NCBI GenBank assembly: GCA_000004695.1
Contig: CM000151.3
Coordinates: forward strand, 2,912,001 to 2,976,000
Length of the DNA stretch: 64,000 nt
Origin: Dictyostelium discoideum
Taxonomy: Eukaryota
Direction of reading: 5' to 3'
The notes under the pieces: model-generated
The model's database searches: none
Seen by the model: only the letters and a program-made list of their open reading frames with translations
What the model was told of the DNA's origin: nothing
Shown here: positions 5,443-63,587 of the stretch, piece after piece
Position numbering within the stretch: the first letter of the stretch is position 1
How the letters are laid out: the number at the start of each line of letters is the position of its first letter
Position numbers and translations under genes: made by a program

Positions 5443-5687
5443 TTTTTATGATAATAATTTATTTTAATACAAAAAAAAAAAAAAAAAAAAATAAAAATTA
5501 ATTTTTATTTTTATTTTTAATTTTCATTTTTTAATTTTTTTAATTTTTTTTTTTTTTTTTTTTTTGGAAATTGCATGTGGAAATAAATCAACTTTTTTAA
5601 TAAAAAAAAAATTATAGTGACAGTGAACTTAAATTTGGTTTATTTTATTTTTTTTTTATTTTTTTAATTTTTTTTTTTTTTTTTCCA

Positions 5688-18519: not shown

Positions 18520-19880
18520 GTTGTTGTTGTTGTTGTACTATAATTTTTTGATAATCTATTTTGTGATTTATTACCATTTGAACAATTTGATTGTGATCTT
18601 GGTCTATTTGATTTTGATAATGATGATTGTTGTTGATTTGAAGTTGGAGTAATTATAATTTCTTGATCATTTATAAATTCACCACTTAATGCTCTAATAA
18701 TTGGTGTACCTGATTTTTCTAAATTTATTTGTTCATATGGTGATCTATAACATTTTAAAATTTGATCTAATAATTGTTTTCTATCGGTTTTATCGTTCAA
18801 TTCTAATCCATGTAAATCTTGTGCACTCTTATTGAAATGTGTTAAATCACCATTTGAATTACATGCAACAATGCCTGCTTTTAAACAACCAATTAATGCT
18901 TCAACAAATTTACTCTCTTCTTCTAATTTATCTTTTGCTTCTTGAATTTCACTAAAATCATGACAAACTCCTAAAACTTTAAAAACTTTATCATCTTTTT
19001 TAATAATTTCACCTCTTTTTTTTTTCATTGAAAAAAAAAAAAAAAAATAAAAAAAAAAGTTTGGAAATTAATAAATAATTAATAAAAATGATAATTATAA
19101 TAATAATAATAATACAAACTTTAATTGAATATATCTAACTAAATTATCATTTTTTCTATTAATTCTTAATGGATATTCAAATGAAGAACTATTTGATTCT
19201 ATACAATTATTAATTATTGGTTGAATTTCTTGAATACCAAGTTTATTAATAAAATCATTAAAATTCAATTTTTTATTAAAATCATTTTCAATACCAATTA
19301 TTTTATAAAATTGATTAGATGCTTTAGTTGTATCATTTTGAACATTCCATTCCCAAGATCCCATGTTTGATGGTTCTGGTCTATTATATTGTCCTTTATT
19401 ACTACTATTAATATTTACAGAATTTTGATTATTTTGATTATTATTTATATTATGATTTTCAATTGATGATGATAATGGTGATTGAATAAATTTAATTTCT
19501 TCAATTGCTTCTACTAATATAAAAATTCGTTTACCTTCGTAATCTAAATAATGACTATCTTGATTTACTAATAAATTAATACTAGTATCCAAATATAATT
19601 GTCTTGCATCCATATCACTAATATGTATTGATGAATATTTAAATATCATTTGTTTTAAAATCTCTCCATTTTCGTTGGATTCTATTATATCGATGTGTTC
19701 ATGTTTTGATTTACCATTTCTAATATCATTTATTAAATTTGAATTATTAAATAATGATGTTATTGATTCAATATTTTTATATTTTTTACATGATTGATTA
19801 CCCCAAATCAATACTCTTTTATTTATATCGAATAACCAAATTGCTTGATTTAATTTTTCTAATATTTTTAAATAAATCAT
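14565..19880 (-). CDS. Hybrid sensor histidine kinase (dhk family): PAS/PAC regions, HisKA, HATPase_c and a C-terminal receiver domain. Two exons: 19120-19880 and 14565-19014; about 1736 aa.
   Basis: H-box FLANISHELLSPMNSIIGMVGL. ATPase N/G boxes LSNLIDNAIKFS...DRGIGVPEDKHDFIFDRFFQVDGSYSRVQGGVGLGLSICKKL. Receiver KVLVAEDNTMNQKLIKTLL...ILMDIQMPILSGLEATCAIRE...PIIAVTAHAMKGDKEKFLESGVDDYVTKPI. The intron is TTA AA|GTTTGT...AG|A GGT in phase 2. The ATG at 19878-19880 opens a PAS-like exon (MIYLKILEKLNQAIWLFDINKRVLIWGN...). Long poly-Asn/Gln/Ser linkers are present. Confidence 0.85.
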
Positions 19881-24961: not shown

Positions 24962-26513
24962 TTAGCCAACCATTGTAAAATCATCGATTTCACCATCACT
25001 AGAAAAATCAGGTTGATAAGTATTTAATTTTGGTGGATAGTTTGGAGTTTGTTGTTGGTTAGTGTTGTTGTTGTTGTTTTTGTTGTTGTTATTATTATTA
25101 TTTTGATTATTATTTTGATTATTATTTGGATTATAGGGAATATGATGATGAACTATAAATTCTTCATCATCAACAACAATATTTTCAGGAATACAAGAAT
25201 GATTATTTCCACCATTTGCAATAGTGATTGCAAGCATTTCAGTTGTTTCACTCTCTGCATAATCATCAACCAATTCACATTCGATTTGATAATCTGGTAA
25301 CTTTTGACAAACTGAAATGATTGGAAATTCACAATTATTAATTACAGATAATCTATCACAAAGATCTTCAAAACTTGCTTGATCTCTACAATAAAATCCA
25401 ATTGATAAAGATGGATCTAATTGTGTAAATGGCATTTTTTGCGGTATACATCCACTATATGTCTATTTAATTATTATTTATAATATATATATAAATATAT
25501 ATTAATAAAACTTAGATTTGAATAATCGAATGAATTATTATTATTATTATTTATAAAACTTACATTTGAATAATCGAATGAATTTGGATTAACACTTTCT
25601 TGGACAAAATGAGGATCTAAATAAATGACTTGATCATCTTGAAAACCAATAAAATAAAATGATTGTTTTGGTTTACCACCAATAAAACCTAAACTTTGTG
25701 GTAATTTTAATAATAATTTTAATTTTTCAATATAGGTTGAGTTTAATTTATCTGCACCCAATTTCAAAGGTATCATAATAATCAATGATTTCCACTTTGG
25801 TGGTATTGAACTAATAGCTGTGTTATAGTCAAATAATGATTCATCATCAAATACTTGATTATTATATCCATTTGGTACTCTAGATGGTGGTGATTGATTA
25901 TTGTTATTATTACTACTTGTTGCTGTGGTTGTTGTAGTTGTTGTGGTTGTTGGGTTGTTGTTATTATTATTTTTATTATTATTTTGTTGAATATTTTGTT
26001 GTTCTCTTAAATGTTGTAATTGTTGTTGAATAATTTGATAATGATTATGTGTATTACTATTATTACATAAATTATTTATATAATCTTTATATATGACACC
26101 ATCAGTTGGAACGTACATTTCTAAATCTTCCAAATGTTGAAATTTAATTAATTGTCTTAAAATATTTGAAATTCTAGTTGGAGCTAACCATTCCTCTACA
26201 TTATCATTTATCTCTTCTTCTTTTTCTTTTTTCTTTTTTCCTTTAGAACTTCCTCCTCCTCCTCGATTTAATGAAATCACTTGTTCTCTTAAAATTTGTT
26301 GTTTTCTATTATTCTTTTCCATTGCTTGTTTTTTATTTACAATTTGATGTATACCATATACATGCTCCTTTGAAGGATAATCACTAAACCATGCCAACAC
26401 TTGGCTATAATTTGAATGTGGTTTCTTTCTTTCTATTTCTGGTACCATATCTTTTTTTTTTTTTAAAAAAAAAAAAAATAAATAAAAATAATTAATTGGT
26501 TAATAAAGTTTAA

Positions 26514-26571
<58 letters not shown>

Positions 26572-27556
26572 ATTATAAAATAAAACAACAAATAATCATA
26601 CCATTTTCTTTATAAAGATGTTTAATTAATGCTCTAGCTAATATCATTTGACCAGTTCTTAACATACAACCCCAACCAATATCTGTAGTAATATTTGTAT
26701 TTTCTATTGGTGGGAAATCTTTCCTATAACTAAACCATATCATTGAAGCTACATCTGATAAAAATCCTGATTCTATAGCTGGTCTATATATAAGATCTGT
26801 AGTTAAATTGTTGTTGTTATTATTATGATTATTATTATGATTATTATTATTATTACTATTACTATTGTTATTTTGAAAAATACCTATAGATTGTTGAAGT
26901 TGTGTTGGTTGGGTCTGTGGTACTTGATTATTATTACTATTATTATTACTATTATTATCTTTTGAGGTATAACACCTTCCCATTAACCAAATTGGTGAGG
27001 GTGAAAAATGTGGAGGCTCCGTTGGATCTTTAAATAAAATGTTAATATATATAAACGATGAAATAATAATAGAAAATAAATAATAATTCCTAAAAACATA
27101 CAATTTCTATAAAGATTATAAAAAGACATCATAATTTTTTGTTTTCCCTCTTTATATATATTTAAAATATTTGTTTTTTGTTTTTGTTCTTTTTGTCGTT
27201 GTTGTTCTTTAATTTGTGATTGTTGTTGTAATAATTGTTGTTGATAAAAAACTTGTTCTTGTAAAAATTGTTCTTGTTGTTGTTGTTGTTGTAAATTGAT
27301 TTGTCTTTGATTTTGGAATGAATTTCCCATTGCCGTTGATGATGATGGTGTTGATGATGATGATGTTGGTGAATTTGGTTGATTAAATCCATAAGAAATT
27401 TGTTGTGGTGCTTGTTGTTGTTGTCTCAAATATGATTGTTGATTATAAGTTTGTTGTTGATATTGAAAAGGTTGTAAATGACTTCCATCTAAACATATAT
27501 AAATATGATCAATCTATATTAATATAAATTTCATTATAAAAAATTTTTTTTTCTTT

Positions 27557-27587
<31 letters not shown>

Positions 27588-27655
27588 GAATAAAAAAAAT
27601 TATAATGAAAATACTTACCCTGATAACCATTATGGTGTGAATATTTCGTAAACAT
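24962..27655 (-). CDS. Autophagy cysteine protease ATG4 (peptidase C54). Five exons: 27619-27655, 27102-27488, 26602-27027, 25564-26450, 24962-25462; about 746 aa.
   Basis: N-terminal motif PSPIWLMGRCYTS. Catalytic block FLSDVASMIWFSYRKDFPPI...DIGWGCMLRTGQMILARALIKHLY. YGIHQIVNK block. C-terminal DPSLSIGFYCRD motif. All junctions are in phase (GTAAGT, GTATGT, GTATGA, GTAAGT donors). Confidence 0.8.
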
Positions 27656-37242: not shown

Positions 37243-37517
37243 GAATAAATTTATAAAATATATGAAATATATAAAAAATAAATAAATTTTATAATTTAAT
37301 TATTTATACTCTGTAAAGGTAGTTACTATTTGAAATTTATAGCCGACTGTTTTATAATTCCTTTTCAGGTTTATTTTTTAGTATTTATAATTGTTTAAAT
37401 TTGATTTTTTATTTTTTATTTTTTATTTTTTTGGTTTTTTTTTTTTTTGGTTTTTGATTTAATTAAAAATTATTTAAAAAAGATGGTATAAATACTACTA
37501 AATAATGATAGTTAAAC

Positions 37518-37738
37518 AACACACACACACTCTCTCTCTCTCTCATTCACACTCATTCACACAAAGACACCACTGATATTATTTTTTATAAAAAAAAAAG
37601 AAAATAAAAATATGATAATTGTGATAGTGAGTTAAGATGGCGAATATAAATTAAGTGTGAGTGTGTTTGAGAGAGACAGACAGAGAGTGTGTGTGTGTAG
37701 TGTGTTTGAGAGAGAGTGTGTGTATGTGGTTAAATTTA
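37518..37738. promoter_or_regulatory. Inverted complementary simple-sequence pair: a (CA)n(CT)n tract at 37518-37574 and a (GT)n(GA)n tract at 37655-37738, giving a potential long hairpin or paired CA-rich and G-box elements.
   Basis: First arm: cacacacacactctctctctctctcattcacactcattcacacaaagacacc. Second arm: gtgtgagtgtgtttgagagagacagacagagagtgtgtgtgtgtagtgtgtttgagagagagtgtgtgtatgtgg. Confidence 0.4.
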
Positions 37739-37947
37739 TATTGGTAGGAGGTGGTAAAGAAAAAATACTTTAAATTAAAATAAATATGTTTCTATAATAT
37801 ATTTTTTATTGTTATTGTTGTAGTTGTTGTTGTTAAAATTGTATTTGAAATTTTGATAGTTTAATAATAGTCATTGACTGGTTGGTTGTAAGAGTGGTTG
37901 GTTATAATAAATGGTTGGCTGTTTAGTTTGGCTGCAGCAAAACAATG

Positions 37948-50394: not shown

Positions 50395-51492
50395 GTCATC
50401 GTCGGTATCAAAATTATGATAATGTTTTCTCTTTTTTAAACTATTACCACCATTACCATTATTACCAATAGGGCCATTTCCTACAGCACTACCACTATGA
50501 TTATTAAAAATGTTTAATACTATTGGAAATTGTTGTTGAGATGGTGGTGGTGGTGGCTGATGTTGTGTTCTAGAATTAAAGAAACTATTATTTCTAAAAA
50601 AAGTAAAGTCATTCGCTTGTCTATTAAGGAATCTATTATTACTATTATTATTACTATTATTATTTCTATCATTATTATGATTATTATTATTATTAGCTAA
50701 ACGTGTTGCTGTCAGTACTAAAACTGGTGATTGTGGTGGAGAAAGAGTAAGATCCACAACTCTGTCATATAAAAAAAAAAAAAAAATTAATAAATCAATG
50801 TCAACAAAAACCGTGGTGTATATTATAACTTACTCTTTATCTTGATTGTTGTTTTGGTTATTTACATTTGTGGTGGTGGTAGTGGTAGTTGTGGAAGTTT
50901 CAGTAGTTTCAGTATTTGAAATAGGTGTGGGTTTATCATTATCATTTTCACCATCATCATCTTCATCATCTTCATCATCATCACTCAAATCTATAATAAC
51001 TACCTGTCTACTTGATTGGCGTTGATTCTGTTTTTCACCCTCTTTTTTGATATTAAGGTCTATTTGTTGTGATTGTTGTGATTGTTGTGATTGTTGTGAT
51101 TGTTGTGATTGTTGTTCCTCTTCTTTATTTTGTTCTCCATTTTGTTGTTCATTTTCTTCATTATGTTGTTCATTTTCTCTATTTTCTTGTTTCTCCTCTA
51201 CATTTTGCTTCACCTCTTCATTTTGTTTCTCCTCTTCATTTTGTTTCACCTCTTCATTTTGTTTCTCCTCTTCATTTTTTTTCTCCTCTTCATTTTGTTG
51301 TATTGGGTTCTTCACACCAAATGCGAAATCCTCTTGTGGGTTTTCATGTTGAACTAATTGAGAGGTACCATGAGCAATTGTTTTATTTTTATCATCTTTT
51401 TGTTGCTTATTTTCTTCATCTATCTGCCTATCCATCAATTCAAATATATCATTTAAAATTTCGGGTATATCTTGTGATGTTTGGCTGTCCAT
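49762..51492 (-). CDS. RNF4-like SUMO-targeted ubiquitin ligase (STUbL): N-terminal SUMO-interaction motifs with acidic runs, C-terminal C3HC4 RING. Two exons: 50834-51492 and 49762-50761.
   Basis: RING finger at the extreme C-terminus, ECPICFEDTKPYVSTLCGHIFCSDCIVNALKKKKSCPVCNAKLHGKKPYHPIYI*, ends in the same HPIYI tail as metazoan RNF4. SIM-like hydrophobic cores sit next to acidic stretches: VVIIDLSDDDEDDEDDD, PVLVLTAT, FPIVLNIF, EVIHILEK plus a D20 run. The intron GA|GTAAGT...ACAG|A is in phase 2. Confidence 0.7.
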
Positions 51493-57376: not shown

Positions 57377-59620
57377 TTATTCTTGATTCTTTGGAAGTGG
57401 AACAATTAAATTATTCCAAGTTTGAATGTTGCTTCTATATTCATTTTCAATGGTAACCAATCTACTTAAAATATCGGTACAAGTTGGTCTATTTTCGAGA
57501 TTTGGATCCCAGCAATCTTGAATCAATGAAACCAATGACTCTGGACATGCATTTGGTATTGTTGGTCTAAGGTTTTTCTTTGCTGTTTGAATAATAATTT
57601 GGAAATCATGTTGTAAATTCTAAAATAATAAAAATAAAAAGAGTTAGAAATATATTTTTTTAAAAAAAAAAAAATTAAATTTTTAAAAATACAAACCTTA
57701 TATTCTGAAAAAGGTCTTTCATATCTACCATTTATACATCTTGTGACCAATTCCCATAGGATAACAGCGATTGAGTAAACATCAGATTTACCAGAGAATT
57801 GTTCACCATAATAAACTTCTGGAGCACAATAAGCAAAGGTACCTCTCATTTTTACCAATGTTTCTAAATTTGATCCTGTATTGAAACGACTTAAACCAAA
57901 ATCACAAACCTTTATTTCCCATTTATCATTTACCAATAAATTTAAACTCTTTAAATCTCTATGAACGATTGGTGGATCCCATTTATGTAAACATTCAATA
58001 CCTCTAACTGTTTCAATTGCAAATCTAAATGTTCTTTCCCATCCAATATCCAATGAATTATTATCCATAACATGATATAAACTACCTCTTGAACAATTTT
58101 CCATTACCATACATAATTTTGGTTCCAATACTGCACCATAAAAATGTACAACATGTTTCGATCTTATGGCACTATAAAAATTAAAAAAAAAAAAAAAATA
58201 ATAAAATTTTAGTTAATATACATATATATTTCTTTTTTTCATTTTCATTTTCATTTTTTTTTTTTTTTTTTTTTTCAAAAAATAATAATAATAAATATAA
58301 AATTAAATGCTTACCTCATAATTTGGAATTCTTTTTTAAATTCTTCAATTTCTTTTGATTCAGTCATTGATTTTAATACTTTAATTGCAACTTCTTTACC
58401 TCTATATAAACCTTTATAAACTTTACCAGAACTACCAGCACCCAATTTCTCAGTATACTCCAACTCATTATCATTAATAATATTTACTTCACCAACATGT
58501 CTTAGTGTATGTAATGAATGTCTAAGTCCACTAATATCTGGTGTATCTGGTGGTGTTGGATCTTCTTCTATTATAAGTTCTGGTGTTTTTGGTTTTTTTG
58601 TTTGTTCATCTAATAATAATTAATGATAAAAATAATAATAATAATTAATAATAATAATAATATTAGTAAATAAATAAATATTTTAAAAAATAAATAAATA
58701 AATAAATAATACATACTTGCTAAATTTGAAGTTTCTTTTAAAATTCTTAATCTTGTACCAGTAGAAGTAATACCCATTTTATTTAAAATATCTTCACTCA
58801 TTTCACCCAATTCATCTAAAAACATTTCTTCCTTTAAAAAAGCATCTTTGTATTGTTCGAAACCATGTTTTTGTAACCAATCAAAGAGATCTTTATACTT
58901 TTTGATACGAGCAGTCATATCCTTGTTACCCTCTTCAACGGCCAATTGATAAGGAGTTTTTCTCTCTTTTGTACCAACACAATCAACATCAGCACCAGCC
59001 TTCAAAAGTACAGACACTAAATCCTCACGACCTAAACGTACGGCATAGTGAAGTGGTGATTCTTGAAATTGAGTTGCCAAATTAACGTTGGCACCATTTT
59101 TCAATAAGAGACCAACCATCATAAGACGTACTGAATTGTTAAAGATTGCCTTGTGTAACGGTGTTTCACCATTCTTATTTTGAGCATTCACATTGACACC
59201 CTTTTGAATGAATAGTTGAAATGGTTCTTGACAATTTGGTGATCTAAATTTCTGGCAAAAGTAGTGAATTGGTGTGTTTAAATCATCGTTTTGTACATCT
59301 ACATTAATGTTTTCATATTGTAATACCCTCATCAATATCCTATCATCACTACTCACTGCTTGATGTAATGCTGAAAATCCATTCTTGTCAAAGGTATTTA
59401 TATCTGCCTTTAATGTTACACATAAACTCAACAAGAGTTCCACCATCTCTTCATTATTATTCTTTAATGCTATAGTTAATGCTGATTGTCCATATTGATC
59501 AAATGATGTTAAATTACTTTTACTAATCTTTTTTTTACTTGATAATTTCTTAACTTTTGTAACATCATTTTGTTCAACTGCACTAAATAATTGATGTTGT
59601 TGTTGTTGAGTTGATGACAT
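57377..59620 (-). CDS. Ankyrin-repeat / SAM-domain / protein kinase (TKL-like). Four exons: 58720-59620, 58316-58608, 57700-58175 (approximate), 57377-57610 (approximate).
   Basis: ANK repeats (GQSALTIALKNNNEEMVELLL..., GFSALHQAVSSDD..., GETPLHKAIFNNSVRLMMVGLLLKNGANVN, ESPLHYAVRLGREDLVSVLLKAGADVD). SAM-like YKDLFDWLQKHGFEQYKDAFLKEEMFLDELGEMSEDILNKMGITSTGTRLRIL. Kinase subdomains LGAGSSGKVYKG...VAIKVLK, HRDLKSLNLLV, DFGLSRF, APEV, DVYSIAVILWEL. Donors GTATGT, GTAAGC, GTTTGT. Confidence 0.8.
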
Positions 59621-59927
59621 TGTATTTTTATTATTAATATTTAATTTTTATTTTTTTTATTTTTTTTTTATTTAATTTTATGTGTGTGTTTTTAATATAT
59701 ATATATTTTTTTTTTTTTGTAATACAAACTGAAGTTTTTTTTTTTTTTTTTTTTTTAATCTTTCTTTAAAAAAAAAAAAGTGAATTATATAATGTACAGG
59801 GATATGTAAAAAAAAAAAAAAAAATATATAAAAAAAAACAAATAAATAAAAATATTGAAAAAAAAAAAATAATAATAATATTGATATTATACGCAAACAA
59901 TTAAATTTATCCTGAAAAAAAAAATCT

Positions 59928-59959
<32 letters not shown>

Positions 59960-60199
59960 AATTTTTTTTTTTTTAAAAAAAAAAAAAAAATAAATAAAAA
60001 AAATAAAAAAAAAATATTGAAGGTACAATAAACTTTGGATTGTTGGAAAAAAAAAAAAAAAATAATAATAATAATGATTAAAATAAAAATAATTTTTCTT
60101 TAAGTTGTTTTAATGTTATGTGATTAAAAAAATAATAATAATGATTAAAATAAAAATAAAAAATAAAAATAATAAAAATAATAAAAAAAAAACCCACAT

Positions 60200-60233
<34 letters not shown>

Positions 60234-60280
60234 CCATCAAAAAAAAAAAAAACTTTAATTGAATATATTATTATATATAC

Positions 60281-60360
60281 CGTTGACCAAGATTCTTCTC
60301 TCTCTTAGCTGTGGTTAATCATGCTCTTGGTTGGGCTCTCACAGCTAATATTCATTTTAT
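60281..60360 (+). ncRNA. Candidate small structured ncRNA (speculative). A GC-richer ~80-nt segment with a 9-bp terminal-type stem, about 80 nt downstream of a DUSE-like ACCCACAT motif (60192-60199), and flanked by ~35-bp direct repeats.
   Basis: Sequence ccgttgaccaagattcttctctctcTTAGCTGTGgttaatcatgctcttggttgggctctCACAGCTAAtattc. Stem TTAGCTGTG/CACAGCTAA (60305-60313 / 60340-60348). Inner complementarity CCAAG/CTTGG. No ORF. Strand is unproven. Confidence 0.25.
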
Positions 60361-60718
60361 TCGATTACAAACAAATTAAAAATATAATAGTCATAACAAT
60401 AAAAAACTTTAATTGAATATAATATATATATATATAACGAATTTCTATATTAAAATAATTTTATTTTATTTATTTTTTAATTTTTTTTTTTTTTTTTTGA
60501 TTTTTTTGATTTATTTTATTTTTGTTTTTATAATTGTTTTTATATTTATTTTATTTTAATTTTATACTTGAATGTTTTTTAAACATTATATATATATAAT
60601 TTGGGCTTTTTCATAGAAACTTATATTAATTTAGTCAAAAATGATTTAAAATTTCTAATAATAGTAAATATGAATCCATTTTTTTTATTTTTAATTTTAT
60701 TTTTTATTTTTAATTTTT

Positions 60719-60759
<41 letters not shown>

Positions 60760-60871
60760 TTCAAAAATTTCGCTGACACCATAAAAATTTTTTTATTTTT
60801 TAATTTAAATTAATTTCGAAAACAAGTTTTGGAAAAAACATATATTTATAGATATTAAAAAATTCTAAAAA

Positions 60872-63587
<2,716 letters not shown>

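Follow-up and report, generated by a model that had tools for sequence, protein, structure and literature searches.

Two kinds of described sequence come closest to the Dictyostelium discoideum element reported here. The first are the Class I RNA genes (DdR-21 and relatives; Aspegren 2004; Avesson 2011; Kjellin et al. 2021, PMC7919456). The second are insertions of the non-long-terminal-repeat (non-LTR) type, i.e. 5′-truncated elements, processed retrocopies, and sequences like short interspersed nuclear elements (SINEs), represented by TRE5 and TRE3 (PMC5391098). Templated or filler-DNA insertions, which stem from break repair and template switching, provide a further comparison. The element is situated at positions 60268–60400 of a 64,000-nt stretch of D. 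discoideum contig CM000151.3 (positions 2,912,001–2,976,000, forward strand; the whole stretch is termed the window), in a 1,251-bp divergent spacer (59621–60871) between two oppositely oriented genes. An earlier note had proposed a small noncoding RNA (ncRNA) gene here, Class I-like and driven by a Dictyostelium upstream sequence element (DUSE). The comparison with Dictyostelium citrinum points instead to a foreign insertion with a target-site duplication.

Class I RNAs have an invariant 5′ G, a 6-bp stem that joins both ends, and a 3′ CUGU, and the 11-nt motif CCUUACAGCAA follows directly after the 5′ half of the stem (PMC7919456). They are approximately 60 nt long with 32–41% G+C. Most curated D. 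discoideum sequences start with GTTGAC-CTTACAGCAA and end with GTCAACTG. The promoter consists of a DUSE about 60 nt upstream or, in D. discoideum, of a DUSE followed by a TGTG box at 60 nt. Canonical DUSE forms precede all expressed D. discoideum Class I genes, and candidates without a proper DUSE are not expressed (Kjellin et al., PMC7919456). Expression in this class is taken to mean an abundant discrete transcript of about 42–140 nt, and the published Infernal covariance-model score is at least 15 for a candidate and at least 25 for core or seed quality (PMC7919456).

Insertions of the non-LTR type display target-site duplications of variable length, 5′ deletions, and non-templated 5′ nucleotides; seven TRE non-LTR families are found in D. 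discoideum (PMC5391098).

The probable insertion and the empty site in D. citrinum

The segment 60268–60400 appears to be a foreign insertion of about 133 bp that is specific to the D. discoideum lineage and carries a target-site duplication of at least 19–21 bp. To this reading, with target-primed reverse transcription as the most likely route, an even chance is given. In the insert, 12 nt of AT junction are followed by the 73-nt core (44% G+C) and then by an AT-rich tail of 48 nt that ends in A; the duplicated target, at least 19–21 bp, is AAAAACTTTAATTGAATAT. The features, all on the plus strand, are as follows.

60192–60199, plus strand: DUSE-like octamer ACCCACAT, which matches 7 of 8 positions of [A/T]CCCA[C/T]AA, the last A being T
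60201–60233, plus strand: T33 homopolymer that separates the insertion site from the DUSE-like motif, with CCATC and an A14 run (60239–60252) next
60247–60267, plus strand: left copy of the duplicated target, AAAAAACTTTAATTGAATATA, contiguous with upstream sequence that aligns to D. citrinum
60268–60279, plus strand: AT-only junction stretch TTATTATATATA, 12 nt, between the left repeat copy and the core
60280–60352, plus strand: G+C-richer core of the insert, 73 nt, 43.8% G+C, which starts with CC-GTTGACC and contains CTCACAGCTAA, identical to the Class I motif at 8 of 11 positions
60305–60348, plus strand: hairpin of 10-bp and 7-bp helices with a 4-nt bulge, which contains a 9-bp stem
60353–60400, plus strand: AT-rich 3′ part of the insert, 48 nt, ending ...AATAGTCATAACAAT; its A-rich end directly precedes the A-run with which the right repeat begins
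60401–60421, plus strand: right copy of the duplicated target, AAAAAACTTTAATTGAATATA, contiguous with downstream sequence that aligns to D. citrinum

The repeat is an exact 21-mer, AAAAAACTTTAATTGAATATA, found at 60247–60267 and 60401–60421 with a period of 154. With mismatches allowed it extends to 35 nt (60237–60271 and 60391–60425, 89% identity, spacing 154), and similarity of the left copy possibly reaches as far as CG at 60281–60282. The flanking direct repeats of about 35 bp in the earlier note are thus real, but this is their correct register. Likewise, the 129-bp unique segment described there is indeed G+C-richer, but it takes in the first bases of the second repeat. The G+C content is 43.8% for 60280–60352, 31.8% for 60280–60408, and 9.3% for the rest of the spacer 59621–60871; the core is one of three islands of at least 38% G+C outside open reading frames (ORFs) in the window. 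A repeat of 18 nt or longer that is not of low complexity was present in 0 of 300 dinucleotide shuffles of the intergenic region. Both the repeat and the G+C contrast exceed chance.

The other two non-ORF islands of at least 38% G+C, 37502–37586 and 37620–37760, are both simple-sequence. A CA/CT-rich stretch (ACACACACACTCTCTCTCTCTC...) is followed, about 35 nt on, by a GT/GA-rich stretch (GTGTGAGTGTGTTTGAGAGAGACAGACAGAGAGTGTGTGTG...). These two blocks are roughly complementary and could pair as a long imperfect inverted repeat.

A third copy of the repeat core is found 41 kb away, where the 18-mer AAACTTTAATTGAATATA is present at 19116–19134 on the plus strand (19 nt with the next T, which is common to the left copy). 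It sits inside or at the end of a minus-strand ORF, 19095–19880, beside a probable intron. A rough composition estimate gives a chance of about 5e-4 for an exact 18-mer match in 64 kb, and the likeness stops at 19 nt. The match could be either a coincidence or a motif that recurs.

Orthologues of the downstream gene product were found by protein search in D. citrinum (84% identity) and Dictyostelium purpureum (59%), and contigs of both species keep the same divergent gene pair in the same order and orientation. The D. discoideum and D. citrinum spacers were aligned with affine gaps, as a MAFFT global alignment misplaced the indel in low-complexity sequence. The flanks are well conserved, with 79 of 89 positions identical in the left blocks and approximately 85% identity on the right, and the affine-gap alignment leaves window positions 60239–60401 unmatched in D. 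citrinum. The D. citrinum contig (L003, positions 5470–5535) reads ...AAAAACCCCCTCATTTTTTTTTCCATC-AAAAACTTTAATTGAATAT-TATGATAACGATTATTTC..., i.e. a single repeat copy that is continuous with both flanks. The junctions of this empty site are CCATC, then AAAAACTTTAATTGAATAT, then TATGATAACGA, the single copy being at L003 5497–5515, and D. citrinum carries nothing that corresponds to window positions 60268–60400. In D. discoideum, the left copy is joined to the upstream flank (CCATC and the A-run) and the right copy to the downstream flank (...ATAACGAATTTC). Because the D. citrinum site is empty and has one copy, the repeats are a target-site duplication around an insert of about 133 bp. A duplication together with an empty site in a relative, the test for an insertion of non-LTR type, is therefore found here, and the remark in the earlier note that the segment looks as if inserted with a target duplication is borne out.

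The D. purpureum spacer is too diverged to align and so gives no polarity for the indel. A search with the first exon of the upstream kinase gene reached only distant, G+C-richer relatives (L001 and L002), in which a 12-nt match is due to chance. Proteins retrieved with this 301-aa query were no longer than 527 aa, about 1.75 times its length, so the 639-aa kinase orthologues of D. citrinum and D. purpureum were missed; D. discoideum proteins were absent from the results of both protein searches. The favoured direction of the event is a gain in D. discoideum rather than a precise loss in D. citrinum, because one event suffices and because no difference has yet arisen between the two copies over 21 nt, against a spacer divergence of 10–15% between the species.

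The opposite course would start from an ancestral repeat–core–repeat arrangement, with D. citrinum losing the core by recombination or slippage between the 21-nt repeats. The core could then be an older and possibly functional element, for instance a cis-regulatory module or part of the downstream gene's 5′ untranslated region; it does sit 520–590 bp upstream of the ATG at 60872, within the divergent promoter region. A two-species comparison gives no polarity, and deletion between direct repeats leaves exactly one copy, as is seen. However, this requires two events, an insertion that makes the repeats and then a precise loss, in place of one. The identity of the copies against 10–15% spacer divergence suggests that the duplication is younger than the split of the species, and D. 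citrinum keeps the gene pair and the spacer without the core. An ancestral arrangement is considered improbable.

Probable mode of insertion and source of the insert

Most likely the insertion arose either through target-primed reverse transcription or in the course of break repair. Target-primed reverse transcription is suggested because an A-run stands at the head of the duplication, the end of the insert at the right copy is A-rich, and there are extra AT nucleotides at the 5′ junction. The plus-strand order is flank, A-run-led duplication, 12 nt of A/T, core, AT-rich segment ending ...CATAACAAT, the same A-run-led duplication, and flank. An endonuclease of the apurinic/apyrimidinic (APE) type, encoded by a TRE non-LTR retrotransposon, would nick the bottom strand at a T-run/purine junction, between TTTTT and GATGG. 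The T-run could then serve as primer at the A-rich 3′ end of a cellular RNA, either short or 5′-truncated, which would be copied, and the duplication would result from a second, staggered nick some 20 bp away. The TRE machinery would in this case act in trans on the RNA (retroposition), and extra nucleotides would be common at the 5′ junction. The TTATTATATATA stretch may represent such extra nucleotides, or it may be a diverged extension of the target duplication. The AT-rich segment 60353–60400 may end in a degenerate A-tail. The last letters of the insert are ...GTCATAACAAT, after which comes the repeat's A6, and in D. citrinum the target begins with AAAAA behind CCATC. This is compatible with target-primed reverse transcription, but in DNA of approximately 90% A+T it does not discriminate, and there is no long pure A-tail.

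Similarities to described non-LTR insertions (PMC5391098) consist of the variable, A-run-led duplication, the A-rich 3′ end at the right copy, extra nucleotides at the 5′ junction, the empty site in a relative, and a short insert without coding capacity. The locus differs from these in that no parent RNA or element was found in the searches described below, a clean poly(A) is lacking, and the 64 kb contain no tRNA gene. Besides these comparisons, we know of no description of retrocopies of cellular RNAs or of SINEs in D. discoideum.

Several points weigh against insertion by target-primed reverse transcription. The polarity rests on one comparison without an outgroup, and the event may have been a precise D. 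citrinum deletion between pre-existing repeats, although such repeats would themselves need an earlier insertion. A clean poly(A) tail is lacking. Similarity of the flanks may reach 35–45 bp, which is long for a duplication made by this route. ARAGORN predicts no tRNA gene in the 64-kb window, though TRE elements integrate beside tRNA genes. In DNA of approximately 90% A+T, where A-runs are ubiquitous, little weight attaches to the A-run that begins the duplication. A parent sequence of the core was not found in searches of the window, related loci, genome samples, metagenomes, plasmids, and E. coli. Lastly, the insert may be a young transcribed locus.

Some of the same observations speak for repair at the DNA level. 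A staggered or resected double-strand break in the A/T-rich spacer may have been mended by template switching or filler capture (microhomology-mediated break-induced replication, MMBIR; fork stalling and template switching, FoSTeS; non-homologous end joining, NHEJ), with about 110 bp copied from another genomic site and 20–45 bp of flank duplicated, without an RNA intermediate or a function. The D. citrinum empty site and the flanking duplication fit this equally. The long flank similarity, perhaps 35–45 nt (60237–60271 versus 60391–60425 at 89%, possibly with TATATA[C/A]CG on both sides), which is long for target-primed reverse transcription, speaks for it, and so do the insert's lack of a clean poly(A) tail and the lack nearby of a tRNA gene of the kind targeted by TRE elements. 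Like described templated or filler-DNA insertions, the insert is single-copy, lineage-specific, about 100–130 bp in size, and found with a duplicated flank in a microsatellite-rich spacer; the A-run/A-tail geometry is not required for such insertions. Break repair also meets difficulties. Extending the duplication through the A-run (TCATAACAATAAAAAAC versus TCAAAAAAAAAAAAAAC) needs three substitutions in 10 nt beside 21 unchanged nt, for which an A-rich insert tail is the simpler account, and no donor was found in the 64 kb or in related loci. Break repair is a serious rival to retroposition, possible but on the whole somewhat unlikely.

Searches for the source of the core covered several collections. 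There are no further copies of the core in the 64 kb or in four related loci (L001–L004). No copy was found in 400-kb genome samples of D. discoideum and Dictyostelium firmibasis (Kjellin 2021 supplement). Metagenomes gave two 19-mer matches to the core, both chance ones in prokaryotic genes, and plasmids and E. coli gave AT-tail noise only. A full-text literature search did not find the core sequence.

Other candidates were considered and rejected. TRE5 and TRE3 insert near tRNA genes, at about 50 bp on the upstream side or about 100 bp on the downstream side, and a copy of either is not favoured as the window has no tRNA gene. A DNA transposon or miniature inverted-repeat transposable element (MITE) is expected to have terminal inverted repeats and a short target duplication of fixed size (2–9 bp). 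TTATTATATATACCG... and ...AGTCATAACAAT, with which the insert begins and ends, show no inverted-repeat relationship, the duplication is at least 19–21 bp, and a search for inverted repeats gave only A/T runs besides the internal 9-bp stem. A plain tandem duplication does not apply, as the core shows no similarity to sequence before or after the repeats. A coding fragment or small ORF is also rejected: stops are found in all frames, ORFs at the locus are of low complexity only, and the longest ATG ORF has 32 codons (60321–60416), which agrees with the absence of an ORF stated in the earlier note. There are no C or D boxes on either strand, as a box C/D small nucleolar RNA would have, and the hairpin, at 17 bp, is too short for a microRNA precursor.

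Comparison with Class I RNA genes

The locus shares several features with the Class I RNA genes. It is an intergenic, G+C-richer island of about 60–70 nt in AT-rich DNA, with a CCCA-containing octamer 80–90 nt upstream, and the string CTCACAGC recalls CCUUACAGCAA. At its 5′ end, CC-GTTGACC, the core has the seven bases with which most curated Class I RNAs begin, and GTTGACC occurs only twice in the 64 kb. These similarities are the starting point for the reading as a small ncRNA gene that is young and specific to D. discoideum, either Class I-like or otherwise DUSE-driven, with a start at about G60282 and with ACCCACAT as a weak DUSE. Further points in favor of such a gene are that G+C (44%) and size can be counted as within the Class I range, that GTTGGGCTCTCACAGCTAAT is loosely like GTTGACCTCACAGCAAT of DdR-34, that the distance of 82–90 nt from DUSE to start can be placed within the 67–88 range of D. 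discoideum Class I genes with a TGTG box, that the published candidate DpcR-31 uses ACCCACAT, and that the hairpin gives a z of −1.99.

The sequence criteria do not agree with a Class I gene. GTTGAC at 60282–60287 is followed by CAAGATTCTTC and not by the 11-nt motif. The only motif-like sequence, TCTCACAGCTA at 60336–60346, agrees with the motif at 8 of 11 positions and is found not beside the 5′ stem but 54 nt downstream of it; matches to the motif with two or fewer mismatches occur at chance frequency in the window. The locus has no 3′ partner GTCAAC, the nearest being at 50800 and 61893, hence no closing stem and no GTCAAC-UG(U) or CUGU end. An alternative closing stem, GUUGACCAAG with CUUGGUUGG, needs G-U pairs and is not favored (z = −0.27 for the terminal-stem model).

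Covariance models give the same result. Rfam 15 shows no match at gathering thresholds in the whole window and none at E ≤ 10 in 59600–60900; no tRNA or transfer-messenger RNA is predicted by ARAGORN. A Class I model (R1) was built from 30 typical curated D. discoideum sequences with the terminal stem specified, four long variants being left out because the 3′ ends were misaligned when they were included. A search of the whole window with R1, filters off and E ≤ 10, gives no match at the locus. With 60230–60450 alone, R1 scores 4.2 bits in local mode (60338–60378) and 1.1 bits in global mode from 60282, as against the at least 15 expected of a candidate. The Infernal comparison suggested in the earlier note was thus negative. 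In the published genome-wide covariance-model outputs, including the maximum-sensitivity run, the locus is absent at all four possible chromosome 2 coordinates. The core sequence and the flanking conserved strings are absent from all supplements of PMC7919456.

The promoter element is no more convincing. AAACCCACATG at 60190–60200 encloses the octamer ACCCACAT. The DUSE-like motif of the earlier note is therefore present, one position to the left of the 60191–60201 given there, but it is non-canonical, badly spaced, at chance level, and not conserved. With published DUSE scoring, ACCCACAT obtains 7.55 versus 12–13.9 for canonical forms, and it ends with AT rather than AA. One-mismatch matches to WCCCAYAA number 148 in the window where shuffles give an expected 188; for any given point, the chance that the 150 nt upstream contain such a match on the right strand is approximately 17%. 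The octamer is 82–90 nt upstream of G60282. The TGTG box (AAATGTG) is absent; AATTGAA is found at the expected place, about 60 nt downstream of the octamer. In D. citrinum the orthologous position reads CCCCCTCA. The spacing between octamer and core is set by the T33 and A14 microsatellites, for which D. citrinum has T9 (L003 5484–5491) and A5 (L003 5497–5501), respectively. As tract lengths differ strongly between these sister species, motif spacing across the homopolymers is evolutionarily unstable, and D. citrinum, with CCCCCTCA and a 9-nt T-run, shares neither the motif nor its spacing. The resemblance of ACCCACAT to a DUSE is due to chance.

The 9-bp stem of the earlier note is exact: TTAGCTGTG (60305–60313) pairs with CACAGCTAA (60340–60348), and the pairing is used in the minimum-free-energy fold. 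The segment 60282–60350 folds with −16.9 kcal/mol and z = −1.99, 7 of 200 shuffles folding as well. The 129-nt segment (60280–60408) is no more stable than its shuffles, z being −1.25 on the plus strand and −0.75 on the minus strand. Overall, the folding support is marginal.

The reading as a Class I RNA gene fails at each testable defining feature, and the insert is not a Class I RNA gene. The wider proposal of a DUSE-driven, Class I-like ncRNA fares little better: the scores of 1.1–4.2 bits, the lack of an Rfam family, the missing motif, stem, and TGTG box, a DUSE score of 7.55, and the absence of the whole locus from D. citrinum all stand against it, the more so as candidates without a proper DUSE are not expressed (Kjellin et al., PMC7919456). 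A young ncRNA gene of this kind is very unlikely. A small-RNA origin or role stays a low-probability possibility because the GTTGACC 5′ end is shared with Class I. There is accordingly a slim chance that the insert is a retroposed copy of a so far undescribed small RNA with a Class I-type 5′ end (GUUGACC), or a new transcribed ncRNA locus specific to D. discoideum. The insert is probably neutral.

Neighbouring genes and significance

The genes on the two sides of the spacer are as follows.

ATG at 59620, minus strand: ankyrin/SAM/protein-kinase gene, on the upstream side of the spacer
ATG at 60872, plus strand: gene for a Q-rich protein with Cys-rich and zinc-finger-like regions, four exons, on the downstream side of the spacer

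The downstream gene is reconstructed as exons 60872–61088, 61311–62870, 62950–63242, and 63420–63587, which encode 745 aa. All introns are GT-AG and two of these are long (AAT)n tracts. The protein is kept across Dictyostelia, with 41% identity in T. lacteum in addition to the D. citrinum (84%) and D. purpureum (59%) orthologues above. Its closest relatives have no Pfam domain on record, and the T. lacteum orthologue is listed with PF05142.

Two other segments of the spacer are shared with D. citrinum. A 33-nt block, GAATTATATAATGTACAGGGATATGTAAAAAAA, at window positions 59782–59814 (L003 5044–5076) is identical in D. discoideum and D. citrinum and lies nearer the kinase gene. ATACGCAAACAATTAA, at 59890–59905 (L003 5126–5141), is likewise conserved in D. 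citrinum. These blocks are better candidates for real cis-regulatory elements than the insert itself.

Base composition, introns rich in (AAT)n, and spacers rich in homopolymers suggest a Group 4 dictyostelid as the origin of the window, and an exact match places it on D. discoideum chromosome 2: the minus-strand ORF at 25477–26448 encodes a fragment identical to part of D. discoideum Atg4. The whole atg4 gene occupies 24962–27655 on the minus strand of the window. The AX4 chromosome 2 tandem duplication is about 753 kb, with copies at 2,263,132–3,015,703 and 3,016,083–3,768,654 (script, PMC7919456 supplement), and atg4-2, at chr2:3,092,131–3,094,824, is inside this known duplication (PMC7919456 supplement). 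As the window carries atg4, it is inside the duplicated segment, and the insertion should hence occur twice in the reference genome. With atg4-2 as anchor, G60282 corresponds to chr2:3,127,451 and, in the other copy, 2,374,500 if window and chromosome run in the same direction, and to chr2:3,059,504 and 2,306,553 if they run in opposite directions.

As it stands, a single-copy, lineage-specific insertion in an AT-rich spacer matters little. The case shows that a G+C-richer island with a nearby CCCA box is insufficient to call an ncRNA gene in Dictyostelium. It is of modest value as a clean example, dated by the D. citrinum empty site, of foreign sequence that entered the compact intergenic space of D. 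discoideum. If a parent RNA were found, the insert would be evidence that TRE elements, whose integration is otherwise strictly directed to tRNA genes, mobilise cellular RNAs in trans. If the insert is indeed a retroposed small RNA, TRE-type machinery would mobilise cellular small RNAs in trans, and the insert would represent a nascent SINE-like or retro-pseudogene class, one that to our knowledge has not been described in the D. discoideum genome.

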